Shown: positions 5,967 through 32,000, counted from the stretch's first letter. The stretch is DNA of 32,000 bases from Vibrio alginolyticus NBRC 15630 = ATCC 17749 (GCF_000354175.2 NC_022359.1:150001-182000); one strand, 5' to 3'. Notes: generated from the letters alone by a model not told the origin. Program-made: numbers and translations.

Positions 5967-6086
5967 AACGTCCGTGTTACTCCGTTGTTTTTATTAAGTT
6001 GTTTATCTTCAATCGTTTTATTGCGGTGATTACCTTAGAGCACCCAATTTTGATTTCAACGACATTGTTTTAAATCTATGAAGAAC

Positions 6087-6986: not shown

Positions 6987-7148
6987 ACCATTATGTCACT
7001 TTTGGAATTAATTATTTTCATTATTTCCCTATATCAACAAAAAATAAAGGAGTAAATTCACGCCAAATTAACAAAACCATTACAACAAAAAGTCACCTCT
7101 ACAGCGGATTGACACCGTTCGAGAAGTCAGCGTACGAAGGATGTACAA

Positions 7149-12210: not shown

Positions 12211-12933
12211 TTATTGTTGCGTTAACACCATACGTGCATTCAGCGGTTGGATTGGGCGATTGTTTTTCCCCATGACTTCCGAAAAAGATTTTATCTGCTC
12301 AGGAGAAATAGTTTGTGCTTCTTTCATCACCAACCAACGCACACCTTCAGAGCATGGTGGTGTCGTTAGTGAGCCGTTAAAGCGGTAGTAGTCTTTATCA
12401 CTTGGGATAAGGGCATCCGCATCAAATGGAACCTTGATGGTAACATCTTGATCTTTAGTTGGAATGTTAGCTAGCATCTTAGCTAGATCTGGGTTCGCGC
12501 CACCCAGTTTAAAGAACACCGCGACAACAGCTAGATGACCTACTTTGTCGGCATGCACAAAGTGTACTTCTAGTGGGTATTCTTTACCGTCCACATGGTT
12601 TTCAGATGGCGTATGGAAGTGGAACTGTTTCAACGTAAACTCTTTACCATCAATGGTGAGTGTGTTTTTGCCTTCTAAACCAATCTGTAAAGTGTGACCG
12701 TTGTTCAGCAGTGAAATTGCCTTACCTTCGTAGTCGAAATTCAATTTTTCTAGCTTCGCTTCGGTCGCCGATTCAATGTTGATTGGGCTCTGGTTTTGAC
12801 CTTTCGCGCACTCAGATGCAAACTCACCCCAATGAGCTGGCCCATGGTTTCCCTCGTAGCCCCAGCTTGCTGCATAAGCTGTTCCTGTAAATACCAGTGC
12901 CAAACCTAATGTTGTTAGTGACTTCTTCATCAT
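12211..12933 (-). CDS. Alpha-class carbonic anhydrase, secreted/periplasmic
   Basis: Signal peptide MMKKSLTTLGLALVFTGTAYA. Also SWGYEGNHGPAHWG, QSPINI, zinc-His motif QFHFHTPSENH...EVHFVH, and SLTTPPCSEGVRW. Confidence 0.9.
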   Translation of the reverse strand: MMKKSLTTLGLALVFTGTAYAASWGYEGNHGPAHWGEFASECAKGQNQSPINIESATEAKLEKLNFDYEGKAISLLNNGHTLQIGLEGKNTLTIDGKEFTLKQFHFHTPSENHVDGKEYPLEVHFVHADKVGHLAVVAVFFKLGGANPDLAKMLANIPTKDQDVTIKVPFDADALIPSDKDYYRFNGSLTTPPCSEGVRWLVMKEAQTISPEQIKSFSEVMGKNNRPIQPLNARMVLTQQ

Positions 12934-14040: not shown

Positions 14041-16463
14041 AGTGCGGTCTCTTCTTCGGCTTTGATACAAACCTGCTCAGGCAATGTTTGTATTTTTTGA
14101 CTGTCACGCTGATACAACCCCTCAATAAACACTTTACATGGCGACTGTCCTTGAGGATAAAACTGAATATAGCGGCCTGGGTCAACGCCTTCAAAGTACG
14201 TAAAACCATCCCAACCAATTTGGCTTGTTAAGCCCGTTTCTGAGCGGCCATATGTACCAATCGGAAGGAACAAATGATTTTCGTCTACCACCGTCATGCT
14301 CAGTGCAATTTGTAGCTCTATTGGGAACTCTAACAGGTAGCCGTAGCCCGAATGTATCGAAGCAAACTGCTCTGTTGCAGAAAACGCAGCATTGGCAGGT
14401 AAATTAAGTGGATCGATTTCATATTTGGCGGTGTAATACGCCGTAGCCCAAGGAACAAGTAAGTAACCTTCATCATCTGTCACTCCGACAATTTGATTTT
14501 CATATTTAACCGGAATACCTTCAAAACCACTGGTGCTCACCACAGCGAAGCTGTCATACACTTCATTCGCTGGGAATATTTCTCCATCCAACGTAGAGAC
14601 TGAACCTGCCATTTCCGCAAAATAATCATAGTCGCCACTGGTGCCATTTAACCCCGCTCTGAACTGCGCCCATGACGCACGGTAGGTCAAATCGGCCTGT
14701 TTACGGTTTTCTGGGTGTTCGTTAATATCATGCGCTAAATTGACGCCCCATCCACCTCGTATTGGCGCAAGGCGGCTGTAACCCACTCGCCCTCGCACAT
14801 CGCCATCGTCCTCTCTTTTCAGCGTTAGCCCCGAACTTCCCCCCAAAGAACTGAAAGGTAGAGAGAATTGCGCCAACGTAACACTCTGACCACCAATACT
14901 ATGGTTGTAAGAAAGGGACATATTGATATTAAAAGGCAGAGCGTAGCTATAAGTAAGGTTTAGGGTACGTGAATCTGAGTCGGATTGTTGAATATCAAAG
15001 TACCCACCAGAAAGTGAGCCCCAATCTCCCAAACGGACTCCCATATTGATTTGTGATAGATGGCGCGACGCGAGTGAAGCGTCCTTGCCTTCATCGAGCA
15101 TTTCATAATTTGGTAAATGAGATAAGGTATAAAAGTCGGCTTGTTCTACTTGAGTTCGAGCAGCGAAGCTAAACAGCCGAGACTGATAACTATAACCTAG
15201 CGCATATGAGGTAGATTGATCCTGAAAATTACTCACACGAAACGAGGCATCCACCGTACCCAAGTTGAAAGCATTGGTGACAAAGCCCAGCCCCGCAACG
15301 ATCAGGTCATCTTTTGCTTCAGCTTGAGCTTCTAATGTTAACCAATCAGTCATGCCATGACGCAGAGCGGTAACCACGCCACCGTCTCCATAGTCGTTAG
15401 ATGCATTACCGAAATTTTCTCTGATCGCACCAATACTCGCACTGTAAGATGTAAATCCGGTCTTGAGTAGATCGGAAGAGAGAAAAAATGGGCTGGTCAT
15501 GACCGTTTGCTTACCCTGAGCATCCGTTGCAATTACCGTTGCTTCCCCAGCACCAGAGAGCATTGGAATATCGTTAATAATGAAAGGACCGGGACCAACA
15601 TTCATTGAGTCAGTTTTAAAGCCATTGATAAACAAATCTAACGTAGTGGGCGCTGTGACTTCACCGTAAAATGCAGGTAACGGCGTCGTCACGACATCCG
15701 GACGCATAGAGAAATCATGCGACAACTGAATACCCGCCAGTCTTACTGGTTGGCTCCAAGATAAAGGGCGAACAATATAGTCCCCTACCTCCATACGAAT
15801 TCGCTTCTCTTGATTGACGTACTCGTAACTCGTATCAAAACGAGTGTACTGGCTGCTTTGCTGGGACTGAACATCGCGATGAAAGTTAGATTTAAATATC
15901 CCGGTAGTAGAAAAAACGCCAAACTCAGAAAAGGCTCTGACTTCATGATTTATAGAAACCTCCTTTTGTCGGCTTTCGTTCTCGTACACACCAAATACGT
16001 TGTAGTTAAGCAGGCCACCACGCCCAAACTGAGCCGGGGAAAATCGCCCCATATCCTGCGCTGATAAATTCTGCATCGGTAACCAATTAGGCGGTACGTC
16101 AATTGCGAGTTGCAATGACGATTGCAAGTAACGCACGTTAACACCTGGGATAGACGTAACCTCAAGTCTCTCTTCGGTTCCAGGCAACGACTTGGCGGTA
16201 ACCCCAACTGAAATGAGGTCCTCCCGGAGCAAAAAGAACTGATCGCCAACTCGCTCAACTTTCGCAACAAGCCCGGTTGCTCTTTGATTGATCACCAACT
16301 CCAGATTGAGGCTAATATTCTCAAACTTTTCTAATGAGAAATTTTCAGGACTCGGTAGCTCAGAGAAGTGGTTTGCTGAATTTGCACAAAGACCAATACT
16401 GCTCCACGTTACGCTAAGTAATACCAACCAAAAGAAAGCATTCATTGTATTAAATCTATTCAT
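14037..16463 (-). CDS. Fimbrial outer-membrane usher (CsuD-like)
   Basis: 808 aa with a signal peptide, beta-rich composition and usher size. It sits between the chaperone and tip subunit. Its ATG (16463-16461) overlaps the chaperone stop as TAATG. Confidence 0.8.
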   Translation of the reverse strand: MNRFNTMNAFFWLVLLSVTWSSIGLCANSANHFSELPSPENFSLEKFENISLNLELVINQRATGLVAKVERVGDQFFLLREDLISVGVTAKSLPGTEERLEVTSIPGVNVRYLQSSLQLAIDVPPNWLPMQNLSAQDMGRFSPAQFGRGGLLNYNVFGVYENESRQKEVSINHEVRAFSEFGVFSTTGIFKSNFHRDVQSQQSSQYTRFDTSYEYVNQEKRIRMEVGDYIVRPLSWSQPVRLAGIQLSHDFSMRPDVVTTPLPAFYGEVTAPTTLDLFINGFKTDSMNVGPGPFIINDIPMLSGAGEATVIATDAQGKQTVMTSPFFLSSDLLKTGFTSYSASIGAIRENFGNASNDYGDGGVVTALRHGMTDWLTLEAQAEAKDDLIVAGLGFVTNAFNLGTVDASFRVSNFQDQSTSYALGYSYQSRLFSFAARTQVEQADFYTLSHLPNYEMLDEGKDASLASRHLSQINMGVRLGDWGSLSGGYFDIQQSDSDSRTLNLTYSYALPFNINMSLSYNHSIGGQSVTLAQFSLPFSSLGGSSGLTLKREDDGDVRGRVGYSRLAPIRGGWGVNLAHDINEHPENRKQADLTYRASWAQFRAGLNGTSGDYDYFAEMAGSVSTLDGEIFPANEVYDSFAVVSTSGFEGIPVKYENQIVGVTDDEGYLLVPWATAYYTAKYEIDPLNLPANAAFSATEQFASIHSGYGYLLEFPIELQIALSMTVVDENHLFLPIGTYGRSETGLTSQIGWDGFTYFEGVDPGRYIQFYPQGQSPCKVFIEGLYQRDSQKIQTLPEQVCIKAEEETAL

Positions 16464-17218
16464 TATTGCTTCAATGGTATTTGGTAACGTTTACCTCCAA
16501 TATTCGCGCTCAAACTCAAGGGTCTGACATTACTATGGGGAATAGACCAAACCTTATACTGTTCAGGAAGAATATAGCCAGCTAGTCCATCGGAAATAAC
16601 GACAGGATCTTTATTTGGTAGATTCAACTGTAAATTCACTAAGCGAACATGGTGTTTTCCTGAATTTTTAATGTGAACAAAACGCTGATTATTTTTCTTA
16701 ATAAACTGTGCCTGTAAATCATCCCATAATTCACTGTCACGGTTTGGTTTTTGAGTATCAGTCAGCCCTTTCCCGTAAATAAACAAAGGTATCGAGTAAC
16801 GCATTCGGACTTTTACAGCGAGTTCATTTTCCGTCAATTCTGTTTGAGGGTTTTGAGTTGGCGGTAATTCATCTATGATCACTCGGTATGCATACTCCTT
16901 ACCCGCAGAGGCCTCATCTTGGTTGATGATGCGGATTAACTGCTTTTCACCTGGTTCAATTTTGACAAACGGAGGGGTTGCAATTAACTGGCTTTGACTT
17001 GAATAACTATCTTCTCCTTCGTTTTGTTCCCACTTAAAAATTCTCACCTGTAAATAAGAATCAACACTGCCTTTATTTACCATCCAAAGTGATGTTGCAT
17101 TACTCTCCTCTGATATTTTGGGGTAAATCGGCCAAATTAATAATGAGTTAGCATTGGCATTTGAGAAAAAAACAAAAAGGAAGGTTATTAATAATAGTTT
17201 TTTGAGTATGAATTCCAT
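16463..17218 (-). CDS. Periplasmic pilus chaperone (PapD-like / CsuC-like)
   Basis: The preferred start is ATG 17218, preceded by GGAGGGGTGAA. Signal peptide is MEFILKKLLLITFLFVFFSNANA. Chaperone-type N-terminus is SLLIWPIYPKI...ATSLWMVNKGSVDSYLQVRIFKW. About 250 aa. Confidence 0.8.
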   Translation of the reverse strand: MEFILKKLLLITFLFVFFSNANANSLLIWPIYPKISEESNATSLWMVNKGSVDSYLQVRIFKWEQNEGEDSYSSQSQLIATPPFVKIEPGEKQLIRIINQDEASAGKEYAYRVIIDELPPTQNPQTELTENELAVKVRMRYSIPLFIYGKGLTDTQKPNRDSELWDDLQAQFIKKNNQRFVHIKNSGKHHVRLVNLQLNLPNKDPVVISDGLAGYILPEQYKVWSIPHSNVRPLSLSANIGGKRYQIPLKQ

Positions 17219-17238
17219 TTCACCCCTCCAAAGTTCAC

Positions 17239-17772
17239 TTACCACTCTAATGTCAGCGTCAGCGTATCCATATAAATTCCAGCCATTTCATTCCCATTTA
17301 TTGTCGCCTTTGCCCAGATAGGAAACTGAATATTATCTGGGTCTTGGTCGGTATCGACGGAATATTGCGTGTCAATATCAAGCACCTGCGTGTAATTTAG
17401 ATCCTGGAACAAAAAGTAATCTACCGTTGTCGCTTCTTCACTGTGCTTTAGCTTACGTACACCATCCGATGCATTCATCCCGCCATTTACGGAAACATTC
17501 ATCGTAATACCCGGAGTACAGCTTAATGTGAGTGATGAACTGTAAGTGATGCTGCCTTGTACTTCCGTCGCGTAAACTGAAGAATGCTCACCAAAATCTA
17601 ACGTGCCTATTTGCCCGGCTTGGGTTGCGCTTTCTTCTTGTACTGCGCCGTTAATCAAACAACCTGTATCTACGGTGGCAGACACCTGAAAAGTTTGTGT
17701 CGCATCAGCCAGCACAGTTAAAGAGCACAAACTCATCGCGACAAGTGAAAAGTCCCTAAAAACCAGCGTCAC
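17239..17772 (-). CDS. SCPU-domain pilin subunit (CsuA/CsuB-like minor subunit)
   Basis: 177 aa with a GTG start 3 nt after the upstream stop and a signal peptide ending LADA. It has the Cys pair (VDTGC...LSCTPG) and the C-terminal signature GIYMDTLTLTLEW. Confidence 0.7.
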   Translation of the reverse strand: MTLVFRDFSLVAMSLCSLTVLADATQTFQVSATVDTGCLINGAVQEESATQAGQIGTLDFGEHSSVYATEVQGSITYSSSLTLSCTPGITMNVSVNGGMNASDGVRKLKHSEEATTVDYFLFQDLNYTQVLDIDTQYSVDTDQDPDNIQFPIWAKATINGNEMAGIYMDTLTLTLEW

Positions 17773-17775
17773 GTT

Positions 17776-18309
17776 TTACCAGCTTAGCGTCACACTGATG
17801 GTATCGGAGTATGTGCCGGCAATGCTGCTCGTACCGTAAGCTTTCGCAAAAAGCTCAATAGTTTGCGATGTTGCACTAGTAAATTCAGACAGAGCTACCG
17901 TCCCGCCTTGTATAATTTGTGTGCTTCGGTCTGAGTCGGTAAACAACGTATAATCAATAAATTGCGCGCCATTTGACATCGCGTAGGTACCAACGGTCGC
18001 ACTTGCATCATACAATCCGGTGCCCAATGTAAACGTCGGTGTCACACCGTTACTACAAAGCACTTCAATACCCGTCGCACTACCACCATTTACCACACCA
18101 TCTTGTTCACTGAAGATTGCAGGCACGTCTCCAAAGGCAAGTGAGCCAAAGCCAACGCCAGAAGCTGCATCTACCGCATTATTTCCATTAATCACACAAC
18201 CTTGTACAAGGTTAATTGAAACATCAATCGTACCGCTCACTGACGCTCCATTCGCTTGCCAACTAAATGAGGTTAAGAGCAGAGGCATCATCAGATAAAA
18301 TCTTTTCAT
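17776..18309 (-). CDS. SCPU-domain pilin, probable major subunit (CsuA/B-like)
   Basis: The preferred start is ATG 18309 (TGGAGC RBS). Signal peptide is MKRFYLMMPLLLTSFSWQANG. It has the Cys pair (VQGC...VLCSNG) and the C-terminal signature GTYSDTISVTLSW. First gene of the operon. Confidence 0.7.
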   Translation of the reverse strand: MKRFYLMMPLLLTSFSWQANGASVSGTIDVSINLVQGCVINGNNAVDAASGVGFGSLAFGDVPAIFSEQDGVVNGGSATGIEVLCSNGVTPTFTLGTGLYDASATVGTYAMSNGAQFIDYTLFTDSDRSTQIIQGGTVALSEFTSATSQTIELFAKAYGTSSIAGTYSDTISVTLSW

Positions 18310-18663
18310 ATAAAGCTCCATTTTTACATTCCACTGTATATCGGTAACCTTTTTATTAGTTATAGCTCAATTATGACAAACCAAATGCATATAAAATGTA
18401 AAACAATAAAAAGAAGCAGGATAAGGATAAAGACGAACAGCAAATAAAAACATTAAACTTAAAAATGACGATTTTTAAGCATGTAATGCTAAAAAATAAC
18501 CACTAAAAACAAATGGTTATTATCTTATTCCAAATACAGAATCGACAATGAGTTAGAAGGTAGGGTGAAGTTGAGTGGAAAAAATCTAAAAAAAGTAGCA
18601 GAACGATACGAGAAGTTTAGAAAAGATTGGCGACCATTTCTTCCCGAAACAAAAATCTTCATG

Positions 18664-21192: not shown

Positions 21193-23523
21193 TTATAGCC
21201 AGGTAGGCTTAGCCAAAAGTGCTTCAAAGTCCTTAGCAGGTAATGGTCGGCTATAGTGGAAACCTTGTCCGAACTCACAGTTTAGGTTTTTCAGGTAATC
21301 CACATGACGCTGTTCTTCGATGCCTTCTGCGACGATCTTAAGATCCAGCGCTTTCGCCATTGCTATGATTACGTTCACAAGCTCGCGGTCTGAGTCGTTC
21401 TCGAACATATTTTGCATAAAGCTACGATCAATCTTTAAGCGGTCGAACGGAAACTTCTGCAAGTAACTCAGCGCAGAATAACCAGTACCAAAATCATCAA
21501 TAGTAAGTTTGGTGCCTAACGCTCGTAAGTTATTAAGCATGTCTAATAGCTCAGAATCGTGATTGAAGAGGAGACTTTCTGTCACTTCAATATCGAACTT
21601 ATCTGACGGAAGACCAGACTCCTCAAGGCTGTGTTTAATAAACGTAAGTAAGCGCTCGCAGTACCTAAATTGAACACTAGAAAAGTTTACAGAAACAAAC
21701 AACGGAGTCAGACTCTGCCATTGTGCCGCTTGTCGACACGCTTGTTGAATAGCAAACTCACCAATTTGATGAATTAAACCATTTTTCTCTGCAATAGAGA
21801 TAAACTCTTCAGGGTTTACAAATCCGTACTTGTCATCATTCCAACGCATTAGCGCTTCTGCACCTACGATTTTACCACTACTCAGCTCAATAATTGGCTG
21901 ATAATACAGCTCTAATAACTGATTGGAGATCGCACTTCTCAGACGATTTTCCAGATCCAAATAGCGTTGCAAATCTTGGTTCATATTATGGTTATAAAAA
22001 CAAAAGCCATCACGCCCATCTTGTTTCGCCCGATACATTGCCATATCAGCACATGCAAGGAGCTGCTCAGCGTTGTCTCCGTCATCCGGGAACACAGACA
22101 TTCCGACGCTGCTACTCAAGAAGAATTCATGGTTGTTCCAAACAAACGGATCGTTAAACGCCGAAAGTACACTTGAAGCAACTCGCTTTGCAGTATCATT
22201 ATCAGGCAAATCAGGGATGACGAGTAAAAACTCATCCCCACCAATTCTCGCCAATAAGTCTGTTTTTCTCGCGACTTGATACAGTCGCTGAGCACTGAGT
22301 TTAAGGATTTCATCCCCAACAAAGTGTCCCATTGAATCGTTAATCTGCTTGAAGTGGTCTAAGTCGATGAACATCACCAAAACTTTAGACCCACTACGCG
22401 ATGCCCTAATTAACTCCAAAGCCAATCGCTCGGAACCATAACTACGATTAGGCAAATTAGTTAATGTGTCATATTTAGCTTGGAAGGCGAGTTCTTTTTC
22501 AGACGCTTTTCGACGTTCAATTTCGTTCGTTAATTTTTTATTCTGTTGAGAAAGAATATCTTTACGCTTTTTTTCTTCCTCAAGCTTAATTTTCAATTCA
22601 ATCCTATTATTGTTCGTGATGAATGCATAACATAAAGCAATGACGATCATAACGGCCAGAATACTCAAACCAATAATAAAGAGCCGTGATGTAAATATAT
22701 CTCGTTCACTCAAAGGCTCGAACCACGCCATCAATTTAAAGTGATGTTTATCCACAGGCACTTCAAAGTAAATTTTTCCGTCTACAGCCTCAGAAACGAA
22801 ATAGTTCTCATCCTTATTGTGAGAAGGTGTTTTATTTATGGTATCCCATACAACCATTTCCACGTCTTTTATTTTTAGCACCATTCGGCTATAACTATCT
22901 TCGTGTTCTTGGTTAGTAAGTTGGTCAATAACAATATTCTTATTAAGATCGGCAATTAAAAAAGCAACAGGCTTTCCGGAGAACTTAACTTGCTTAATGA
23001 CTTGAATGCGAACGTCATCATTGTATCGCGTCGCACAAACCTCTTCGGGATGCCCGTGTTGAGTCATTAAGGTTTGTATGTCCATTTTGTGCTCGGCAAG
23101 GTTTTCAGATCCAGTGGTGACAATGGTGACTCCATCACTGCCTACCAGCGTGAGCTTCTTATAGATTTGGCTGCTATTAATTAGCTTACTGTCTATCTTC
23201 TCATCGAAGCGACGCTTTAAATTAATTAGACTGGCTCCTAAGCCATACTCCATTGACATGCCAGAAGCTAAATTACCAAAGAATGTTTGTATTGTTTTAT
23301 CTGTAGCTAGATTATCAACATCTTCACTCGCTATGGTAAATAAATTATCGAGTGTGCTTGCATAACTTTTTACTTTTAAATCTAGTTCTCTGTATTGAGA
23401 TTCTTTTAACTTATTTTGACCTACGCTAGTCACAGTAATAAGCATAGCTAAGTAAATTGAAACTAATATTGCGCTTATTGTAATAAATCTTTTACTGGAA
23501 AATTTTTTAACGGCCTTATTCAT
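21193..23523 (-). CDS. scrC: Membrane-bound periplasmic-sensor GGDEF-EAL protein (ScrC-like bifunctional c-di-GMP enzyme)
   Basis: 776 aa. It has TM1, a periplasmic domain of about 250 aa, TM2 and a coiled coil. The GGDEF is intact (RIGGDEF) with an RxxD I-site (RKTD) 5 residues upstream. The EAL domain is intact (EALMRW, DDFGTGYS, KIDRSF, EGIE, QGFHYS). An ATGA overlap links it to the upstream binding-protein gene. The three-gene architecture equals V. parahaemolyticus scrABC. Confidence 0.7.
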   Translation of the reverse strand: MNKAVKKFSSKRFITISAILVSIYLAMLITVTSVGQNKLKESQYRELDLKVKSYASTLDNLFTIASEDVDNLATDKTIQTFFGNLASGMSMEYGLGASLINLKRRFDEKIDSKLINSSQIYKKLTLVGSDGVTIVTTGSENLAEHKMDIQTLMTQHGHPEEVCATRYNDDVRIQVIKQVKFSGKPVAFLIADLNKNIVIDQLTNQEHEDSYSRMVLKIKDVEMVVWDTINKTPSHNKDENYFVSEAVDGKIYFEVPVDKHHFKLMAWFEPLSERDIFTSRLFIIGLSILAVMIVIALCYAFITNNNRIELKIKLEEEKKRKDILSQQNKKLTNEIERRKASEKELAFQAKYDTLTNLPNRSYGSERLALELIRASRSGSKVLVMFIDLDHFKQINDSMGHFVGDEILKLSAQRLYQVARKTDLLARIGGDEFLLVIPDLPDNDTAKRVASSVLSAFNDPFVWNNHEFFLSSSVGMSVFPDDGDNAEQLLACADMAMYRAKQDGRDGFCFYNHNMNQDLQRYLDLENRLRSAISNQLLELYYQPIIELSSGKIVGAEALMRWNDDKYGFVNPEEFISIAEKNGLIHQIGEFAIQQACRQAAQWQSLTPLFVSVNFSSVQFRYCERLLTFIKHSLEESGLPSDKFDIEVTESLLFNHDSELLDMLNNLRALGTKLTIDDFGTGYSALSYLQKFPFDRLKIDRSFMQNMFENDSDRELVNVIIAMAKALDLKIVAEGIEEQRHVDYLKNLNCEFGQGFHYSRPLPAKDFEALLAKPTWL

Positions 23524-24452
23524 CGGAGTTTCTTTTTATCTTCTATAAAGTAATCGTTATAAAAGTAGTAAATAGATGGATAGTATTTTTTTACTAGTTT
23601 TTCGTATGAACCGTCTTGTTTTATCGAGTCTAAATAACGATCAAATGCTTTGCGTAATTCAGGGGAATTTTTACGGAATGCAACAGCCATTTTTTGATTC
23701 TCAGATATAGGGCCAATGACTTTTATTTCACCCGGCCATTTTTCGAGGGCAATTAGCGTATCCGCAACATCTAATAATGTGCTTTCCGCATCATTTTTCA
23801 TTATCGCTGGAACCATCTCATTAAGGAGACGCGCCCCATCAGGTAATATAACTTTTGCACCTGTGTCATATAAGTCATAAAGGTTAGGATCCAAGCAAGA
23901 ATGTTCTAAAGCTAACACTTCGCGACCATCGATCAGCTGCTTGACGTTTTTAACATCTTCATCGACCGACCCACTTGGTTTAATCGGGCTCAGACTAGAG
24001 TCGGATCTGGAAACCAACCATACACCTGAAGGAAAATAATCTTGTGAAAAATCGACAACCTCAGAACGCCAATCAAGAATAGTAACGCCATTTGCGATCA
24101 AATCGCCTTCAATTGGAACACTTTCTCCGACAACAGCCTGCTTGTTGTGATATTGCACATTTTGCCCTGTCAACTTACCAACCACGTCGCTCCACTGTGC
24201 TGGAACATACTGGTACTGAACACCTAACGACTTGGCAAAACCTTTTATTATCTCTACATCCAAGCCAGTCAAAGTTTCCACTTCACCTTGTTCAATATAG
24301 GAGACAAAGTTAGCGTACGGGACACCAATGTGACGCAGTACACCGCGTTCACGGATTTGTTGTAAATCGTCTGACCAAGCGGCAGACGACGCAACAGAGG
24401 TAACCATGAGCGCCACCGTCGCTAAAGTTCTTTTGAATGTTATGACTGACAT
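23520..24452 (-). CDS. scrB: Periplasmic solute-binding protein, family 3 (ScrB-like)
   Basis: The preferred start is ATG 24452 (AAGGA RBS), giving signal peptide MSVITFKRTLATVALMVTSVASSAAWS. The body is SBP_bac_3-like. Its stop overlaps the scrC-like start. Confidence 0.7.
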   Translation of the reverse strand: MSVITFKRTLATVALMVTSVASSAAWSDDLQQIRERGVLRHIGVPYANFVSYIEQGEVETLTGLDVEIIKGFAKSLGVQYQYVPAQWSDVVGKLTGQNVQYHNKQAVVGESVPIEGDLIANGVTILDWRSEVVDFSQDYFPSGVWLVSRSDSSLSPIKPSGSVDEDVKNVKQLIDGREVLALEHSCLDPNLYDLYDTGAKVILPDGARLLNEMVPAIMKNDAESTLLDVADTLIALEKWPGEIKVIGPISENQKMAVAFRKNSPELRKAFDRYLDSIKQDGSYEKLVKKYYPSIYYFYNDYFIEDKKKLR

Positions 24453-24514
24453 AATAATATCCTTACCTTTCACAAAGCGCCCAATAATGGGCGCTTGAGT
24501 GATAAACAACGATG

Positions 24515-25924
24515 TTAGAACGACGAGTAATACAAATTCGTCATCGCCACTACGAGCCCTTCCACATCTTGTTCGTCATGGAACAAATGCGTAGAGATAC
24601 GCAGCGCGTAAGTATCAAAGTCATCATCCTTATGCAGCTTAAAGCTAGTCGTACGGATGATGTAACCATACTCTTCACGTAAACGATCTCGGAATTCCGT
24701 CAATATCTCTTCATTAGTTACATCGGAGAACGGGTTAACCGTCGTTAAGCCACTGGTTAAGCCTTCCACGTTTGGTGAATACATTTTGGCTTGTGGTAAG
24801 TACTCTTGAAGCAAGGTTTTACATAAACTACCAAGGCTTACAACTCGCTCTTCGATACGGTCTCGACCAATCTCATCCCACATTTTGCAACTATCAACTA
24901 GTGCTTGTTTCGCAGGATAGTTATCGTTACCAATGTATTGCATTTGCAGCTGTTTACCCAGGTAATCAGCATGAGAAAGTGAGGAGTTGATCAACCATAA
25001 CGGGTTCTCTCGGTCGCTCCAATACTCATTCAAACGGTTACCGTTATCACGAACATACAGAATACCTGTCGCGCCCGGACCACACTGCCACTTATGACCA
25101 GATCCTGCATAGAAATCACAATCCATATCGTGGAAATCAAGGTCAAACATACCGACCGTATGCGCGCCATCAACAAGAGTAGGCACGCCATACTCTTTTG
25201 CTAAAGCACAAATGGCTTTGGCTGGTAGCGCGGTTCCTGTTTTGTATGTGATATGAGAGAAAACAATTAGGCGAACGTTTTGATTCGCATCAAGCGCGTC
25301 TTGGAACGCTTGAATGTAATCTTGCTCAGAAACGTTTTCAGTACCAGTAAATACTGGTAGTTGAATTTCTACCACATCCACACCAAAACGATGTTTCGCT
25401 ACGTTCATAGGTGATGTTGCAGCAATATGTTCATGGTGTGTCGTTAGAATCACATCACCTGGTTCAAAGTGTAAGCCATTAATGATCGAGCATAAGCCAT
25501 CAGTAGTGTTGCGGCTGAGAATGATCTCTTCTGGGTTAGCACCAAAACCTGGTGCGACGTCTTTAACCATCTCTGAAACATAAGGCCAAGAGCCAAATTT
25601 GCCTTTCATATCCCAAGGATATTTAGCCACCAGCTTGTTGTTATGCTCGTAATCTTCAAGAACATGTTTTGGCATTGAACCTGTTGTACCAATGTTCATG
25701 TAAGTGGTTCGTTTGTCCAAAACGAACTGTCTTCGCACTTTACGCCAGAAGCGCTTATCGTGTTTTCTACCTAGCCCGCGGCTGCTCCAATCAATTTTCT
25801 GTTCTCGTGCTTGAGCTACGCCTGAGAAAGCGGAAGCACTCACACCAGCAACAACAGCTCCTGTTGCGCCTTTCAGAAAATTACGGCGGCTGCTATTAGT
25901 CTGAATAGATTCCTTGTCTTTCAT
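24515..25924 (-). CDS. scrA: Class V aminotransferase-fold PLP-dependent enzyme with Tat signal peptide (ScrA-like)
   Basis: The preferred start is ATG 25924 (AAGGA 9 nt upstream). The N-terminus MKDKESIQTNSSRRNFLKGATGAVVAGVSASAFSGVAQA contains the exact Tat consensus S-R-R-x-F-L-K and an AxA cleavage site. The PLP-Lys motif is GSGHKWQCGPGATG. The track's longer start (26005) lacks an RBS. Confidence 0.7.
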   Translation of the reverse strand: MKDKESIQTNSSRRNFLKGATGAVVAGVSASAFSGVAQAREQKIDWSSRGLGRKHDKRFWRKVRRQFVLDKRTTYMNIGTTGSMPKHVLEDYEHNNKLVAKYPWDMKGKFGSWPYVSEMVKDVAPGFGANPEEIILSRNTTDGLCSIINGLHFEPGDVILTTHHEHIAATSPMNVAKHRFGVDVVEIQLPVFTGTENVSEQDYIQAFQDALDANQNVRLIVFSHITYKTGTALPAKAICALAKEYGVPTLVDGAHTVGMFDLDFHDMDCDFYAGSGHKWQCGPGATGILYVRDNGNRLNEYWSDRENPLWLINSSLSHADYLGKQLQMQYIGNDNYPAKQALVDSCKMWDEIGRDRIEERVVSLGSLCKTLLQEYLPQAKMYSPNVEGLTSGLTTVNPFSDVTNEEILTEFRDRLREEYGYIIRTTSFKLHKDDDFDTYALRISTHLFHDEQDVEGLVVAMTNLYYSSF

Positions 25925-26465
25925 CTTTTTCAATCCTTGTCGGAAATTAGCCATATTATTAATTTTAAGTGCGTAACTATCTGTTACTAAAACATTATTA
26001 CCCATTACAATCAGAGTTTAATTTTTTCCTCTGCCATTAAGTGACTTTAGTTCCAATTTTTTATCTTATTTGATGATATAAGCAACAGTTTGACCACAAA
26101 TCTATAAACAACAATGTTCACATTAATATATTCGTTAATTTGACTATTCTTTATTGCGGACAATTCCACCAAATTCTTTATAAAACAATTATGAGCTTTG
26201 TTATAAAGTCATTAAAAATTTAACTTTGCGTTAATTTAAAAATATTCAGGCTATTTTAAGATTGGCGTCTATTCTTTTTATATCTTAACGATCTCAATAT
26301 GTTAAGACTAAATAAGAGAAAGCTGATTTCGGATCGAGATATCAGTTTAAGACCATAAAGTGATACACATCACTCTATGACATAAACTCACCGCTCAACA
26401 GACATAAGTAAAACAGGTTTTCACTAATATGTGCTTGAGCGTACACGCTAAAAGAAGGAGGTCCC

Positions 26466-26981
26466 ATGTTAAAAGGATTGCTATGCATTTCAGTTGCATC
26501 CGCTCTTGTCGCCGCCCCTAACGCGCTAGCAAAAACGGTAGAAATGACTGCTCTCAACACCAATGAGAGCGCGGGTACCATTGAGATTTCACAAAGTGAT
26601 TATGGCGTTGTTTTTACGCCTCAATTATCAGGTTTGTCAGCAGGTGTGCACGGTTTCCATGTTCACACTAATCCATCTTGCGATAGCATAGAAAAGGATG
26701 ACAAAACCGTATTAGGCGGCGCAGCAGGTGGCCATTATGATCCTAACAACACAGGGAAGCATGGCTATCCTTGGACCAATGACAATCATTTAGGCGACTT
26801 GCCTCCACTCTATGTGGACATGGACGGCAATGCCAATCAGCCCGTTGTCGCGCCTCGCCTAAAATTATCGGATTTAAAAGGTCGAGCGTTAATGATCCAT
26901 GCAGGTGGTGACAATCACTCCGATCACCCAAGTAAGCTAGGTGGTGGCGGCGCTCGCGTCGTATGTGGTGTTATTGAATAA
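26466..26981 (+). CDS. sodC: Periplasmic Cu,Zn superoxide dismutase
   Basis: Signal peptide is [22 protein letters not shown]. Motifs are [16 protein letters not shown] and HAGGDNHSD...[12 protein letters not shown]. Strong RBS AGAAGGAGG. Confidence 0.92.
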
Positions 26982-27008
26982 ACATTAACTTATGTCTCAC
27001 ACTTCTCT

Positions 27009-28382
27009 TTAGATTGCGAGAAGTGTGAACTTCTGTTGATACTGAGAGGAGGTTGCATTGGTCTCAAGGTAGCTGTGGTGAAGCATTAAGATCGATTGGA
27101 CAATCTTCGTCCCGATCCCCAAAGAACCGCCCTCCGCTTCTTTCTCGATGTGATTGACGAAGGTAAAATGGATACGCGACTTATCCTCACTCAAATGCGC
27201 TTGGCAATGCACTTCTGAACCGATTGGGCTGTGGCGCAATGCATTTTCAAGCAGGTTCAATACCAATCGCTCCAATAGCCCCTTGTCACCCACGGTTTGG
27301 ATTTCGCTATCGATATCCACTTTCAATACCACTTCTTTACGAGAAAACTGGCTCTGCATCGTTTCAGCACATTCTGCCATCAAAGCGCCCAGATCTACGG
27401 GGCGGTACTCGTAATTTGGCATTGGAGCTTCTTTGCGTGCGGCGTCTAATAAAGAATGCAGTTGAGTTGAGAGCTTCTCACAATTTCGGAAAGCAACGTC
27501 AATCAAAGGATCGGATTCCGGATGTTGCAAACGCCACGTTTCCAAATAGCCCAGCACGCTCGATAACGGCGTTTTTAAATCATGACTAAGCTGCAACAAG
27601 CTTTGACGACGATGAGACGATTGATACTCCAACTGTAAAAACTGTTGCTGAATGTGCTTCGCCATCATCTGATAAGAGTGCGCAATCGGCACGAGCTCCG
27701 GCACTTGGTGAGTAAAATCAGGTTGCAGGCGGAAATCATGTTCGGCTTGCTGTTGAAGTTGCTTGGTCACACGCTCAATCGGGTTCAATAGGCTACGTTT
27801 CACCAGCACATAAGCCCCAAGAGCAAAGCCTAAAATGGAGACTAAGACCAATCCTGCCAGCGCGATATAAGGAGTATCGACTTGAGCATTGGCAATGGCG
27901 TCATGTCGGGTACTGCCAATCACCACGTAGAGATAACCGACCGTAGAGCCTAATTCCTCTATCGCCGCGACAGAAAAGACTTTGTGTTCACCACGATTAC
28001 GTGGGTCTTCACCCAAAATAGGAAAAGGCTGGTCATTTAAGAATTGCTTAATGGGATTGAGATCCACCTTCCCCATGATCTCCGCCCCTTCCGGTGCTGC
28101 ATGAGTGGTGATATTGCCTTGGCTATCGAGGAAGTAGATTTCAAAATCAGGGCCGATCAGCATGAGCGTGTGAAAAATCGACTTGAGCGCTTTAGGGTTG
28201 TAATCCGTTCCGATCATCAGCGGATTATCATCACGCATGTGGCTGGCTAGCTCTTTATGCAGGCTTTGCTTGGTGCGTAACTCAATGGTTTCTTTTTGCC
28301 AATTGTAAGTCAGTGCAATCACCACCGCCGCGAGACAGAACCACAAGCTAGTAAATACCACTAAGCGAGATTTGAAGCTCAT
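27009..28382 (-). CDS. Sensor histidine kinase (two TM helices, periplasmic domain, HAMP, HisKA) with an atypically short ATP lid
   Basis: 457 aa. H-box is LSHDLKTPLSS and N-box is LLENALRHS. The region where the G1 (DxGxG) and F boxes are expected reads FTFVNHIEKEAEGGSLGIG, so only the G2-like motif is present. RBS is GGAGG. Confidence 0.8.
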   Translation of the reverse strand: MSFKSRLVVFTSLWFCLAAVVIALTYNWQKETIELRTKQSLHKELASHMRDDNPLMIGTDYNPKALKSIFHTLMLIGPDFEIYFLDSQGNITTHAAPEGAEIMGKVDLNPIKQFLNDQPFPILGEDPRNRGEHKVFSVAAIEELGSTVGYLYVVIGSTRHDAIANAQVDTPYIALAGLVLVSILGFALGAYVLVKRSLLNPIERVTKQLQQQAEHDFRLQPDFTHQVPELVPIAHSYQMMAKHIQQQFLQLEYQSSHRRQSLLQLSHDLKTPLSSVLGYLETWRLQHPESDPLIDVAFRNCEKLSTQLHSLLDAARKEAPMPNYEYRPVDLGALMAECAETMQSQFSRKEVVLKVDIDSEIQTVGDKGLLERLVLNLLENALRHSPIGSEVHCQAHLSEDKSRIHFTFVNHIEKEAEGGSLGIGTKIVQSILMLHHSYLETNATSSQYQQKFTLLAI

Positions 28383-28394
28383 CCTATCGCCTCC

Positions 28395-28499
28395 TTAAAC
28401 AGCGGTGTTTTTGCAACACCCGTGATGATTGAAAAATGATGGTGAAAACAACTGCCGACTTACTGTCTTGGCTTGATGTTTTGACTTACTTTCTTGCAT
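28395..28499 (-). CDS. Candidate 34-codon small ORF between RR and HK (MQESKSKHQAKTVSRQLFSPSFFNHHGCCKNTAV)
   Basis: Manual translation. Its ATG (28499-28497) overlaps the RR stop as TAATG. Its TAA (28397-28395) abuts the GGAGG RBS of the kinase. It exactly fills an otherwise unexplained 116-nt RR-HK gap. There is no homology evidence. Confidence 0.25.
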   Translation of the reverse strand: MQESKSKHQAKTVSRQLFSPSFFNHHGCCKNTAV

Positions 28500-29230
28500 T
28501 AGTGTCTTGGTTGAAACTTATATCCAACACCCCACACGGTTTGGATGAAGTGATGATCAGAATCAGACAACGACAACTTGCTGCGTAAACGATTTATGGT
28601 GCTACACACCGTGTGGTGATAACCAGAATGACTGGTGTTCCAAACGTGATCGAGCAATTCATCTTTACTGTAGACTCTGCCCGGACGAGTCGCGAGAAAC
28701 TGCAGCAAAGTAAACTCTGTCGCGGTGAGCGTGACATCCTTGTCGTTTAAGGATACTTGGTGCAACTCCGGAATGATTCTCAGCGGGCCAAAATCCATCG
28801 CATCATCGAGGACTTCATCTGCCACCTTTGCTTCAGCGGTTTGGCTGACTCTGCGCAGCACGTTTCGCACTCGTGCTTGGAATTCTAATACGCTAAATGG
28901 CTTGGTGATGTAGTCATCAACGCCCGCTTCTAAGCCGTCTACCTTGTCCATTTCACCGTCTCTGGCTGTCAGCATGAGCACTGGGCTCCAATCTTGTTGC
29001 TGACGCAAATAATGGCAAATGTCTAGACCATCACCATCTGGTAAACCTCGGTCAAGGATCAATAAATCAAAGGGTTGTTGCTGGTATTGCGTTTTAGCAT
29101 CGGCGACATTTGTGGCTCGCGATACTTGGTGTCCTTGAAACTTGAGATGCATCTGAACCAGTTCTGCCAAATCATCGTCATCTTCCACCAACAAGATGTT
29201 CGCGACTAAATTGATTGCCTGTTGTTCCAT
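28499..29230 (-). CDS. OmpR/PhoB-family response regulator (receiver plus winged-helix DNA-binding domain)
   Basis: The preferred start is ATG 29230 (AAGGAAAGG RBS): MEQQAINLVANILLVEDDDD... Phospho-acceptor region is DLLILDRGLPDGDG, followed by TKPF. C-terminal wHTH ends in TVWGVGYKF. Confidence 0.88.
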   Translation of the reverse strand: MEQQAINLVANILLVEDDDDLAELVQMHLKFQGHQVSRATNVADAKTQYQQQPFDLLILDRGLPDGDGLDICHYLRQQQDWSPVLMLTARDGEMDKVDGLEAGVDDYITKPFSVLEFQARVRNVLRRVSQTAEAKVADEVLDDAMDFGPLRIIPELHQVSLNDKDVTLTATEFTLLQFLATRPGRVYSKDELLDHVWNTSHSGYHHTVCSTINRLRSKLSLSDSDHHFIQTVWGVGYKFQPRH

Positions 29231-29294
29231 GGTCCTTTCCTTGCCTTCGAGTATCCTCACTTTGCACATGACCGGAACAAATTAGAAATTCTTT

Positions 29295-29372
29295 CAAAAA
29301 AGGTTCCGATGACGCCATGAGGGATAAAGCGCTCTGCTACAAGCGCTTTGGAAAGGAGACGTCATCGGAGCC
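29295..29372 (-). terminator. Nested (branched) rho-independent terminator or attenuator between the spondin-like genes and the two-component genes
   Basis: Outer perfect 10-bp stem: TCCGATGACG (29305-29314) / CGTCATCGGA (29360-29369). It encloses an inner 8-bp hairpin: AAAGCGCT (29326-29333) / AGCGCTTT (29342-29349). On the minus strand the outer stem is followed by ACC-TTTTTT. Confidence 0.55.
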
Positions 29373-29376
29373 TGTG

Positions 29377-30072
29377 TTACTCGACTCGAGTGATGGTGAC
29401 TTTCGCACCTGGGTTCAAGAAACGATGGTTCGCAGAAAGTGCTGAGTTTGCTAATCCGTCATCTTGGCTAACAACACCCGCATGGAATGCAACAACGTCA
29501 TTGCTGTCATTACGTGCAGCATTGAAACCCTCACCGCCACCTGCTGGGCCCGGAATGGTTGCAGCAAGCTCATCGTTTAGCTCTGTACCGGAATCCCAAA
29601 CGTTCATGCTCATTTCGTAGCTTTCACCCACTGCGAGCGATTTGAGCGATAGCCCCGTTTCGCCAACAAAGGCATCGTTGGTATTCACGAACATAGACGC
29701 CACAGACAAGTAACCGTAACGACTAGGGTCAACCGTGATGGTGACTTCGTCCGATGCACCCGGCAACACCAATCCATTGCCCGAAATACCTTGGTAAACA
29801 CTGTCATTGCTGTTCATCAACTCAATCAGCTCAGCGTTACTACCGCCTTCGGCAAGGTGCTCAAGTTCAACAGATGCGGCTTGTCCAATTTCAAACAGTT
29901 GGTAGTCACCATTGTGAGTGAGTACAGCGAGCGGAGACATTGGTTGATTCGCAGTCAAGTTCGCCACGTTGACGGTGTAGCGGTACGATTTCACTACGTC
30001 ATTATCATCATCGCTTGGGCAACCAGCGAGCAAGCCGACTGAAGCTGCTACTAGTAAGATTCTGTATTTCAT
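29377..30072 (-). CDS. Spondin_N-like domain lipoprotein (paralogue B)
   Basis: Lipobox is MKYRILLVAASVGLLAGC. It shares motifs with the upstream paralogue: LAEGG, YLSVASMFVNTNDAFVG, DSGTELNDELA, HRFLNP. RBS is AAGGGGGA. Family assignment is from remembered motif patterns, not a search. Confidence 0.6.
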   Translation of the reverse strand: MKYRILLVAASVGLLAGCPSDDDNDVVKSYRYTVNVANLTANQPMSPLAVLTHNGDYQLFEIGQAASVELEHLAEGGSNAELIELMNSNDSVYQGISGNGLVLPGASDEVTITVDPSRYGYLSVASMFVNTNDAFVGETGLSLKSLAVGESYEMSMNVWDSGTELNDELAATIPGPAGGGEGFNAARNDSNDVVAFHAGVVSQDDGLANSALSANHRFLNPGAKVTITRVE

Positions 30073-30081
30073 ACATCCCCC

Positions 30082-30765
30082 TTACTTCACAACGATTGTG
30101 ATGGTTGCGACTGGGTTTAACCAACGATGGCTACTGCTGTCTAGGTCACTGATGCCGCCAGATGGGTCGCTATCACCAAGGTTACCCGGATGCACGTGAA
30201 CTTTGTCGTTAGTTACCGTTGCTTCAACGCCTGTGCCGCCAGTACCAAAGGTAATGAAAGGTGGGTTTGGCATGCTAGACGCAAGCTCATCGTTCGCTTC
30301 TGTACCAGCATCGTAACTTCTTAGCGTTGCTCGGTATGTACCCGCTTCCGTTGGAATCTTCCAGCTATCTAGACCGACAAAACCGTCATTGGTTGGCAGC
30401 AACATCGCGCTCAGAGAAAGATAACCGTGGTCGCCACTATCCAAGGTGAAGGTGGTTGCCACACCTGGGTTCAAAATGCCACCAGCAGGGTTCTCTACCA
30501 CCGCACCACCAGCGTTACCAATCACACTAGCAAGCCCAGAGATATCACCGCCTTCTGCCATTGCTTCTAGTTCTGGCGTTGATGCTTGACCCGTTCTGAA
30601 CATTTGAAGATCAGAACCATGTGCGGCAACAATAAGTGGCGTAAAGTAGATGCCTTTGGTTGCGTTTGTCACGGTGATTTCCAATTCCGCCGCATTCACT
30701 GATGCAGAGCCTAGTGCCATAGCGACTGAAGTCATGACGAGTCCGAGTTGGGTACGTTTTTTCAT
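30082..30765 (-). CDS. Spondin_N-like domain secreted protein (paralogue A)
   Basis: Sec signal is MKKRTQLGLVMTSVAMALGSASVNA. Motifs are FTPLIVAAHG, MAEGGD, YLSLSAMLLPTNDGFVG, DAGTEANDELA and HRWLNPVATITI. RBS is AAGGATGG. It lies 9 nt upstream of paralogue B. Confidence 0.6.
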   Translation of the reverse strand: MKKRTQLGLVMTSVAMALGSASVNAAELEITVTNATKGIYFTPLIVAAHGSDLQMFRTGQASTPELEAMAEGGDISGLASVIGNAGGAVVENPAGGILNPGVATTFTLDSGDHGYLSLSAMLLPTNDGFVGLDSWKIPTEAGTYRATLRSYDAGTEANDELASSMPNPPFITFGTGGTGVEATVTNDKVHVHPGNLGDSDPSGGISDLDSSSHRWLNPVATITIVVK

Positions 30766-30921
30766 TGTGATTCCATCCTTTAATGAGGGTTGAACTACCC
30801 AAGCCCATGTGTACGGCTTTACTTCTTTGTTCGTGACTTGAGTAGGTTAAGCATTACGTTTCGAACGTTTTGCGTTCTTGCCTCTAAGAATGACGAGCAA
30901 ATCTATCAGCAACTTCATCGA

Positions 30922-30961
30922 ATTCTCATAAAATTCTCACAAGTTCTGTTCGAATTCTGTC
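30922..30961 (+). promoter_or_regulatory. Four helically phased direct repeats (ATTCTCAT, ATTCTCAC, GTTCTGTT, ATTCTGTC); candidate OmpR/PhoB-family response-regulator binding array
   Basis: Units start at 30922, 30933, 30943 and 30954 (spacing 11/10/11 bp), all in the same orientation, with AT-rich 3-4 nt spacers. This matches Pho-box-like architecture. It lies in the divergent intergenic region between the spondin-like operon and the 31054 gene. Confidence 0.45.
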
Positions 30962-30991
30962 AACAGCACTTTTTTACTCTTAATCAGCTAT

Positions 30992-31020
30992 TTACACGTC
31001 GCGCTTTCCCCTCCTACAAT
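30992..31020 (+). promoter_or_regulatory. Candidate sigma70 promoter for the 31054 gene (TTACAC-N17-TACAAT)
   Basis: TTACAC is at 30992-30997 and TACAAT at 31015-31020, with a 17-nt spacer, 34 nt upstream of the ATG. Confidence 0.35.
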
Positions 31021-31053
31021 GCGATATTCCCTGTTTAAATAACGATTCTCACC

Positions 31054-31527
31054 ATGATTCATAACGTTCTGTCTGCCTACTATGGCGAAATCTACGGCAT
31101 CGCTTTTTTCAACCACTACTTGAGCCATTACGCCCAAAGTGAACAACAAACGCTGTGGCAAACCTTGATTAAAGTGGAAGAGCTAACCGCAGAAAAGCTC
31201 AAACCTGTACTGCTGACAAATGGCATGGATATCGAAAGTCGACACCAAGAGATGTTGGATAAAGGCTTGGAAGATGCAATCAAATGGATTGGTTTACCAT
31301 GGCAAGAGTTGGTGGCGACTCTTCTGAAATGGGTAGAACCTTATGAGGTCAAGTATCGAGAGTGGCATGAAGAAGTGAACGCTTCACAGCAGTATTCAAT
31401 CGCTGAACGAGAAGCTATCGAGTTGATTGCAGACCACGAAACGGCCATTTATCACTGTTGGCAGCAATACCATACTGGTGAATCTGGCTTGCCTGCACTC
31501 AATGCATTTTTGGCAAAATATCGTTAA
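31054..31527 (+). CDS. Hypothetical protein, 157 aa, predicted all-helical
   Basis: An ORF with coding-like composition (MIHNVLSAYYGEIYGIAFFNHYLSHYAQ...). No signal peptide, no recognisable SD, and no family recognised. Confidence 0.5.
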   Translation: MIHNVLSAYYGEIYGIAFFNHYLSHYAQSEQQTLWQTLIKVEELTAEKLKPVLLTNGMDIESRHQEMLDKGLEDAIKWIGLPWQELVATLLKWVEPYEVKYREWHEEVNASQQYSIAEREAIELIADHETAIYHCWQQYHTGESGLPALNAFLAKYR

Positions 31528-31604
31528 AGCGAGACGGTGACACTTGAACCTCGTGAAACCGTACCAGACAATATCGTTATTCCGCTGCGCAGAACTGAAC
31601 AATT

Positions 31605-32000
31605 ATGGTTAATCCAAAACTCATAGCCCTACTTCCTGATCTTGCTTCGTTTATCTTAGTGGTAAACGAAGGCAGTTTTACCGCTGCTGCTAAACAACTC
31701 GGCGTAACGCCATCGGCTTTAAGTAAGTTGATCACACGGTTGGAACAAGCCCTCTCGGTCAAACTGTTTGAGCGCACGACTCGTAAGTTGATCATCACTC
31801 AAGCTGGGCAAAAGGTTTACGACCAAAGCATCGCAATGGTGAATGCCGCGCAGCAAGCCGTTGAGCTATCTGCGGAAGATCATGCTGAGCCAACAGGCGC
31901 ACTCACAGTAGCAGCCCCTGAAGCATTTCTTAATTCGGTGCTTCAACCGTTTGTGTTGCCATTCCTAGAACGTTATCCAAATATACAGCTTAAGCTGCGC
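31605..32000 (+). CDS. LysR-family transcriptional regulator, N-terminal 132 codons; continues beyond the window end
   Basis: Not in the ORF track because there is no stop in the window. Manual translation from ATG 31605 gives MVNPKLIALLPDLASFILVVNEGSFTAAAKQLGVTPSALSKLITRLEQALSVKLFERTTRKLIITQAGQ..., a canonical LysR wHTH. Confidence 0.85.
   Translation, partial: MVNPKLIALLPDLASFILVVNEGSFTAAAKQLGVTPSALSKLITRLEQALSVKLFERTTRKLIITQAGQKVYDQSIAMVNAAQQAVELSAEDHAEPTGALTVAAPEAFLNSVLQPFVLPFLERYPNIQLKLR

Follow-up and report, generated by a model that had tools for sequence, protein, structure and literature searches.

Why would a bacterium keep two exported copies of a domain shared with animal matrix proteins in tandem, directly ahead of a two-component system? 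The question is raised by a locus of Vibrio alginolyticus NBRC 15630 = ATCC 17749, situated in the 32,000-nucleotide stretch of DNA analysed here (NC_022359.1:150001-182000; hereafter the window). We call the two genes spoA, for the secreted protein, and spoB, for the lipoprotein; both names are convenience labels coined in this analysis. They are followed by genes encoding one response regulator and one sensor histidine kinase. V. alginolyticus is the source of the window: the kinase, the regulator in its 243-residue form and the first spondin protein are exact matches to AGV19044, AGV19045 and AGV19047, which carry generic names only.

The best explanation, which we hold about as firmly as we doubt it, is that the four genes make up a self-contained envelope module of marine Gammaproteobacteria, in which two spondin-domain proteins are combined with a dedicated regulator and sensor. 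The locus comprises the following features, in window coordinates.

30082..30765, minus strand: spoA, 227 amino acids; Sec signal ending in SASVNA/AE, soluble product with an FS/Spondin_N domain, mature protein without cysteine.
29377..30072, minus strand: spoB, 231 amino acids; lipobox LLAG/C with proline at +2, paralogue of spoA.
28499-29230 (open reading frame to 29269), minus strand: OmpR/PhoB-family response regulator, 243 amino acids from Met14 of the open reading frame; Response_reg and Trans_reg_C domains.
27009..28382, minus strand: sensor histidine kinase, 457 amino acids; two transmembrane segments flank a periplasmic domain.
27870-28307, minus strand: periplasmic domain of the kinase, residues about 26-171, between the two transmembrane segments.
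27153..27158, minus strand: site of the deletion in the kinase catalytic domain, between IHFTFV and NHIEKEAEGGSLGIG; about 27 residues are gone.
30913..30941, minus strand: phased repeat array, with TGTGAGA at 30941-30935, TATGAGA at 30930-30924 and GATGAAG at 30919-30913.
30887..30892, minus strand: hexamer CATTCT, a putative -10 element beginning 49 nt past the start of the first box.
29295..29373, minus strand: stem-loop followed by six U in the gap between spoB and the regulator gene, a candidate terminator or attenuator.
26466-26981, plus strand: sodC, convergent with the kinase gene across a 27-nt gap.

Every feature that an initial annotation of this DNA had described is present, and the interpretation which it drew from them is partly supported. 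The two spondin genes do encode a secreted protein and a lipoprotein that are paralogues (35% identity, BLASTP E 3e-34), lie 9 nt apart and have a Shine-Dalgarno sequence each, AAGGATGG before spoA and GGGGGA before spoB. The regulator and the kinase downstream on the same strand were both recovered by family search, and sodC converges on the kinase gene as described. An Rfam search of window positions 26000-32000 gave no match.

The assignment of both proteins to the Spondin_N family holds at the level of profiles and of predicted fold. Pfam Spond_N (PF06468) matches the two window proteins with E-values of 2.5e-9 and 1.5e-10 (38 and 42 bits, cut-off 24), and the NCBIfam model NF038123, 'spondin domain-containing protein', covers their full length with E-values of 1e-59 and 6e-58 (202 and 196 bits, cut-off 40). 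We modelled SpoA with AlphaFold (AF2) on an alignment of 46 sequences from both paralogue groups, which also served to score invariance; the predicted local distance difference test (pLDDT) score is 76 overall and exceeds 90 in the core, residues 27-155 and 220-226. Searched against the PDB with Foldseek, the model has three significant matches only, 3D34_B, 3D34_A and 3Q13_A, with E-values of 5.8e-12 to 4.9e-10 and TM-scores of 0.58-0.63. The best is the FS domain of mindin (3D34, E 5.8e-12), joined by that of F-spondin (3Q13, E 4.9e-10); the fourth-ranked match already falls to E 6e-3.

The Ca2+ ion of F-spondin has as its ligands D325 in the PSPDW motif plus D354 and D358 in the DAGTD motif (PMC3117680). 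The profile alignment places the bacterial PTNDgF on PSPDW and yDaGTE on DAGTD. The acidic blocks TND-FVG and D-GTE, both noted previously, are thus the signature motifs of the FS domain, because they align with the Ca2+-holding motifs of F-spondin, and the earlier idea of a bound cation acquires a structural basis. Residues D127, D152 and E156 occupy the positions of the Ca2+ ligands and are invariant in 46 of 46 sequences; a divalent-cation site is probably retained in the bacterial proteins.

With the FS domains of mindin and F-spondin these proteins share the profile family, a C2-like beta-sandwich core, the two signature motifs, the acidic Ca2+ ligands and the histidine of the AAHS motif. 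Unlike them, they are stand-alone domains of about 200 residues, free of reelin and TSR domains, disulfides and glycosylation, and they come as a secreted protein and a lipoprotein under a bacterial response regulator. They also carry invariant residues specific to bacteria: N158, D159 and E160 right after GTE, then H192, R214, N217 and P218, with H213 nearly invariant. Most of these belong to a poorly modelled stretch, the counterpart of the long loop that precedes the final strand in the animal domain.

How far does the arrangement extend? A genome scan, limited to one genome per species, returned 80 loci, 71 of which have enough flanking sequence to be informative on gene neighbourhood. They span Vibrio, Photobacterium, Thaumasiovibrio, Enterovibrio, Grimontia, Veronia, Psychromonas, Shewanella, Colwellia, Thalassotalea, Alteromonas and relatives, Teredinibacter, Aliikangiella, Hahellaceae, Thiotrichales and one metagenome-assembled genome (MAG) of Sulfurimonadaceae. 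Both spoA and spoB are present in the same order in 78 of the 80; of the two exceptions, one is cut by a contig end and the other (L011, V. crassostreae 1F243) bears an internal deletion. The division of labour between the paralogues is just as constant: no SpoA orthologue (0/80) has a lipobox, whereas all 78 SpoB orthologues do, 75 of them in its strict form and the remaining three as LFGC, LFAC or LMGC. The residue after the SpoB cysteine is Ser, Pro, Gly or Asn and never Asp, so that by the E. coli +2 rule SpoB is predicted to be sorted to the outer membrane.

Regulator and kinase genes adjoin the pair in 52 of the 71 informative loci, the regulator alone in 8, and neither in 11; at least the regulator is thus next to the pair in 60. 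The co-inheritance expected from the window extends far beyond Vibrionaceae. All-versus-all clustering of open reading frames from the 80 loci yielded no further gene common beyond close relatives, and none present in more than 14 loci apart from antisense frames.

A few loci depart from this layout. In V. crassostreae 1F243 (L011, 8001-9781) the deletion fuses a truncated spoA to a truncated kinase gene, with spoB and the regulator gone, and in V. rotiferianus (L001, 10307-11685) a frameshift splits the kinase into two open reading frames; both are cases of strain-level decay of the module. In Enterovibrio and Grimontia (L021-L027, about 3300-7900) a large hybrid kinase and a single-domain receiver are encoded directly upstream of the boxed spondin pair, together with a receiver protein about 550 residues long, whose C-terminus looks GGDEF-like by eye; the cognate regulator and kinase do not follow the pair there. 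Divergent from spoA in the window, a 157-residue open reading frame (31054-31527, plus strand) matches no Pfam or NCBIfam family. Its position is kept in V. rotiferianus and V. parahaemolyticus, beside a LysR regulator and a glyoxalase, and it is absent from the other loci; we rule it out as a member of the module, given the lack of a family match and its restriction to the closest relatives.

The link between the pair and the regulator is read from the DNA upstream of spoA. The phased repeats noted there are real and conserved in most of the 80 other genomes. In the window they read TGTGAGA-N4-TATGAGA-N4-GATGAAG with an 11-bp phase and cover about -61 to -33 of the spoA promoter; the exact 18-mer pattern occurs once in 32 kb. 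Upstream regions of the orthologues give the consensus TtGTGAtaatTTtGTGAtAatTt.GtGA followed at a fixed distance by cAt.ct, that is, three (T/C)GTGA(G/T)A boxes in 11-bp phase. Measured against their own shuffles, phased boxes are significant at p<=0.01 in 56 of 81 upstream regions, and a period of 11 stands far above the others between 8 and 14. Counted from where the first box starts, the CATnCT element begins at +49 in 30 loci and at +38 in 19, which puts the promoter-proximal box over the -35 position. A consensus promoter scanner did not call CATTCT, as expected for an activator-dependent promoter.

Since the boxes are conserved at a fixed distance from the putative -10 element, the regulator most likely controls the pair directly. 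The boxes are kept upstream of the pair also in Enterovibrio and Grimontia, where regulator and kinase are not adjacent, and a regulator-kinase pair of the same type is encoded elsewhere in the genome of E. nigricans. It was the homologue search with the sensor half of the kinase, yielding 19 fragments only, that led to this unlinked pair. In that locus (L083, 2550-8649) the regulator and the kinase each come as two open reading frames, and so does a neighbouring ABC ATPase; splits in three genes point to sequencing errors of the assembly and not to true pseudogenes.

The boxes resemble the sites of PhoB and CreB in being 7-bp direct repeats with an 11-bp phase that take the place of the -35 region. 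The pho box has a TGTCA core, similar to the TGTGA found here, and the complement of the cre tag, TTCAC-N6-TTCAC, is similar to GTGAN on the box strand. They differ from both in the G at box position 4, which is conserved across orders, and in their target genes.

Do the four genes form one transcription unit? In the window, the stem-loop between spoB and the regulator gene is stable (-37.2 kcal/mol, z -5.6) and probably lowers read-through into regulator and kinase. A combined consensus scan for promoters and terminators missed this hairpin because of the scanner's loop limit. Elsewhere the gap has a median of 63 nt, and a terminator-like site was found in 6 of 59 loci by a scan with 50-nt fold windows, which also missed the long hairpin of the closest relative, V. 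rotiferianus (L001); on that count, a terminator after spoB is unsupported as a general feature. As the gap is short and terminator-like sites are few, the four genes look like one operon ancestrally. The gap between regulator and kinase in the window (28383-28498, minus strand) is unusually long, 116 nt, with a short hairpin, CGGTGTTgcaaaAACACCG, just before the ribosome-binding site of the kinase; many other loci have no gap here, the genes touching or overlapping.

The initial annotation saw a dedicated OmpR-type two-component system, a view that stands for the regulator and only in part for the kinase. The regulator has clear Response_reg and Trans_reg_C domains (E 4e-25 and 4e-24) and a canonical receiver pocket, E-D-D-T-K. 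Among NCBIfam models PhoB, VanR and CreB fit it best, and none of them reaches its cut-off (PhoB 205 against 296, CreB 192 against 273). For the kinase the best is a heavy-metal sensor subfamily (83 against 292), ahead of PhoR (75 against 334) and CreC (70 against 356). With every NCBIfam score under the curated cut-off, the system does not qualify as an orthologue of PhoBR, CreBC or CusRS.

The kinase retains a HisKA domain (E 4e-10) and lacks a complete HATPase_c domain with N, G1, F and G2 boxes. In an alignment of 54 orthologues, all 17 Vibrionaceae proteins, that of the window among them, lack about 27 residues through a deletion that takes away the G1 box (DxGxG), the F box and the greater part of the ATP lid, whereas DxGxG[ILM] is present in all 36 orthologues from outside the family. 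HATPase_c scores follow the same divide: 21-25 bits or none in Vibrionaceae (21 in the window; cut-off 26.4) against 79-93 bits elsewhere. Matches of the window protein to solved kinases end just before the deletion, and the precomputed Pfam list for its V. parahaemolyticus orthologue holds HisKA only. The H box, SHDLKTP, is kept in 52 of 53 surveyed orthologues and in the window, where the N box and a G2-like box also remain.

In GHKL ATPases the G1 aspartate contacts the adenine. Because the G1 and F boxes of the ATP-binding domain are lost, the Vibrionaceae protein is predicted to be unable to autophosphorylate, and is probably a kinase-dead pseudokinase; its retained H-D-x-x-T motif suggests phosphatase activity. 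DivL, RetS and RcsD are comparable in keeping the dimerisation/His domain beside a catalytic domain that is apparently not ATP-competent, and DivL and RetS are among the PDB sequence matches of the kinase. Here, by contrast, the phospho-accepting histidine and the H-D-x-x-T motif are intact, and the predicted defect stems from a clean loss of the G1 and F boxes that is restricted to one family, orthologues elsewhere being canonical.

Loss of kinase function appears to go further in other lineages. Receiver pockets are canonical in 61 of 68 regulators; the seven degenerate ones (L047, L058, L069, L071, L073, L074 and L076), reading SDDAY, SNDSK, QNDSY, NQAAY or NIEKN, all come from loci without the kinase in which the spondin pair is kept. 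One regulator without an adjacent kinase (L077) has a canonical pocket. The pair and its regulator being kept where kinase sensing is lost, we favour the view that the pair is a regulated output and has its own function, rather than serving purely as a co-sensor. The earlier proposal had left these two possibilities side by side; the promoter boxes and the retention of the pair where the kinase is lost tip it to the output side.

We propose the following course of events. The phosphorylated regulator would bind the boxes over the -35 region and activate the pair, as PhoB does at the pho box; the ancestral transcript would also have carried regulator and sensor, giving positive autoregulation. 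Both spondin proteins would hold a divalent cation at the site formed by D127, D152 and E156. Their joint target in the periplasm, where one would be free and the other anchored in the outer membrane, would be an anionic ligand of the envelope or the availability of cations. They may in addition exert feedback on the sensor, of the kind known for CpxP and CpxA. In Vibrionaceae, the sensor would most likely serve as a signal-gated phosphatase or antagonist of a regulator phosphorylated by another donor.

The Cpx system offers a likeness in logic only: it too has an OmpR-family regulator (CpxR), an envelope sensor (CpxA), one soluble periplasmic protein (CpxP) and one outer-membrane lipoprotein (NlpE). 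There, CpxP doubles as regulated output and modulator by feedback. There is no relation in sequence or fold to CpxP or NlpE, Spond_N being the only domain detected, and the CpxA and CpxR models score far below their cut-offs; moreover, the accessory proteins are here paralogous to each other, and their genes share an operon with those of the system.

Published data on the family are sparse, as previously supposed. Literature searches with the family name, the Pfam and NCBIfam accessions and the V. parahaemolyticus locus tags found no functional study of bacterial spondin proteins, only one passing mention in a gene map and two omics tables. In Pseudoalteromonas luteoviolacea the same four genes are drawn downstream of an L-amino-acid oxidase gene, their function uncommented (PMC6316408). 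In V. parahaemolyticus, VPA1514 is sodC, VPA1515 the kinase and VPA1516 the regulator; by gene order, VPA1517 and VPA1518 are the spondin pair. Expression of VPA1516 rises 2.8-fold with 55 mM Mg2+ (PMC10990858), a weak hint in favour of the proposed module. VPA1515 is among 21 two-component genes that change during macrophage infection, with no known function (PMC10469919).

Several points weigh against this explanation. Upstream of the unlinked regulator-kinase pair of E. nigricans no box array was found. The regulator is matched to the boxes by their position, phasing and conservation; the putative cation binding of the pair is read from an alignment, and the loss of ATP binding is predicted from missing G1 and F boxes. 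Residues 157-214 of the SpoA model, which hold several invariant residues (H192, H213, R214, N217, P218), are of low confidence. Finally, the Mg2+ data set contains 1,494 changed genes and so says little about any one of them (PMC10990858).

Among the alternatives, the one that survives best reverses the order of importance: the spondin proteins would primarily be ligand-binding accessories that deliver a signal to the periplasmic domain of the kinase, control by the regulator being secondary. We consider it possible but doubtful. Such arrangements are familiar from LuxP with LuxQ, TorT with TorS, and the lipoprotein NlpE and soluble CpxP with CpxA. The pair stands immediately upstream of regulator and kinase in the 52 complete informative loci, its split into a soluble protein and a lipoprotein is universal, and the periplasmic domain of the kinase, about 145 residues long, does contain conserved residues. 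The sensor, though probably kinase-dead, is still strongly conserved within Vibrio (688-750 bits), hence some function exerted through its periplasmic part. Against this, at least 19 informative loci keep the pair and have no adjacent kinase, which gives the pair a role independent of this sensor, and in the seven kinase-less loci with degenerate pockets the regulators would have become independent of phosphorylation.

A more elaborate pathway for Vibrionaceae, in four parts, strikes us as unlikely when taken whole. In it, a kinase-dead but signal-competent sensor would control the canonical PhoB-like regulator by phosphatase action or sequestration; the FS pair would provide Ca2+/Mg2+-dependent ligands as well as the output; the system would report the divalent-cation state of the outer membrane; and the bacterial FS domain would reveal the ancestral ligand of spondins.

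Less probable again is a module for Cu/Zn or periplasmic oxidative stress, tied to the neighbouring Cu,Zn superoxide dismutase, for which the initial annotation had taken sodC as a clue to function. The convergent sodC is peculiar to V. alginolyticus and V. parahaemolyticus, the latter with an otherwise identical locus: a search for it gave no match in any of the 80 surveyed loci. Because no other neighbour is conserved, we regard the adjacency as specific to this lineage, and sodC is ruled out as a member of the module; the clue does not survive. Other signs of metal are easily listed. The heavy-metal sensor subfamily is the best NCBIfam model of the kinase; in the spondin proteins, His49, Met121, His192 and His213 vary little or not at all; and the L-amino-acid oxidase that precedes the four genes in P. 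luteoviolacea produces H2O2 (PMC6316408). Yet the kinase falls far short of that subfamily's cut-off, the regulator scores higher with PhoB, VanR and CreB than with CusR/CopR (149 against a cut-off of 279 on the heavy-metal regulator model), the boxes are direct repeats of the PhoB/CreB kind, and none of the loci contains a linked metal efflux or chaperone gene. The AF2 model of the sensor domain, PDC-like in topology, is best matched by the sensor domains of CusS and CzcS, together with KinD; it is a poor model (pLDDT 61) and the matches are weak (E 4e-3, TM-score below 0.5), so we did not rely on them and drew no ligand class from them.

The wider spondin family puts the domain in a more external setting. 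A profile search of 1.84 billion representatives gave 5,508 clusters at 50% identity, many of them large proteins with up to eight spondin repeats, some combined with RTX, CHRD, cohesin, fn3 or type IX sorting domains. In view of such architectures, the domain behaves like a module for extracellular binding. Natural two-domain proteins also occur, whose halves score alike on the spoA and spoB profiles and which for that reason belong to other subfamilies and are not clear fusions of the paralogues. That SpoA and SpoB are themselves surface adhesins or host-interaction factors mimicking animal spondin or mindin, as the fold common to animal matrix proteins, the surface-type architecture of these large relatives and the response of VPA1515 to macrophage infection (PMC10469919) might suggest, is highly improbable for small single-domain proteins with no surface-anchoring or secretion signal beyond Sec and a lipobox, whose cassette occurs in free-living psychrophiles, sulfur oxidisers and many environmental MAGs, and in a family of which the mindin integrin-binding motif is not a feature, even in F-spondin (PMC3117680).

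The window contains other gene clusters of interest. On the minus strand at 21193-26005, three tightly packed genes overlap by 4 nt or stand 5 nt apart: they encode a class-V aminotransferase with a TAT signal (24515-26005), related to the periplasmic pyoverdine-tailoring enzyme PvdN, a solute-binding protein of family 3 (23520-24509) and a GGDEF-EAL protein (21193-23523). This cluster looks like a periplasmic ligand or enzyme input to cyclic di-GMP turnover. Further along the same strand, 13072-18321 encodes a chaperone-usher pilus of the Csu/spore-coat-protein-U type, with three SCPU-domain subunits, a PapD-like chaperone and an usher, and 12211-12933 a eukaryotic-type (alpha) carbonic anhydrase (Pfam Carb_anhydrase, E 2e-50).

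We return to the envelope module of two spondin-domain proteins with their regulator and sensor. Its four-gene form is widespread, being found in Vibrio, Photobacterium, Shewanella, Colwellia, genera related to Alteromonas, Psychromonas and MAGs of sulfur oxidisers, and all copies are annotated at domain level only. Among the carriers are V. parahaemolyticus (VPA1515-VPA1518) and V. alginolyticus, both of them seafood pathogens. With its defined promoter, its predicted binding site and the contrast between canonical kinases and those without an ATP lid, the module is directly testable, and the cassette could show the ligand of the FS domain, which is still unclear for the animal proteins too. 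The two-component system in this genome appears to be a derived form with a predicted kinase-dead sensor. Across the family, the loci would constitute a natural series of two-component system decay, from intact, through kinase-dead, to kinase lost with a regulator predicted to be independent of phosphorylation, with the same target genes kept in all three.

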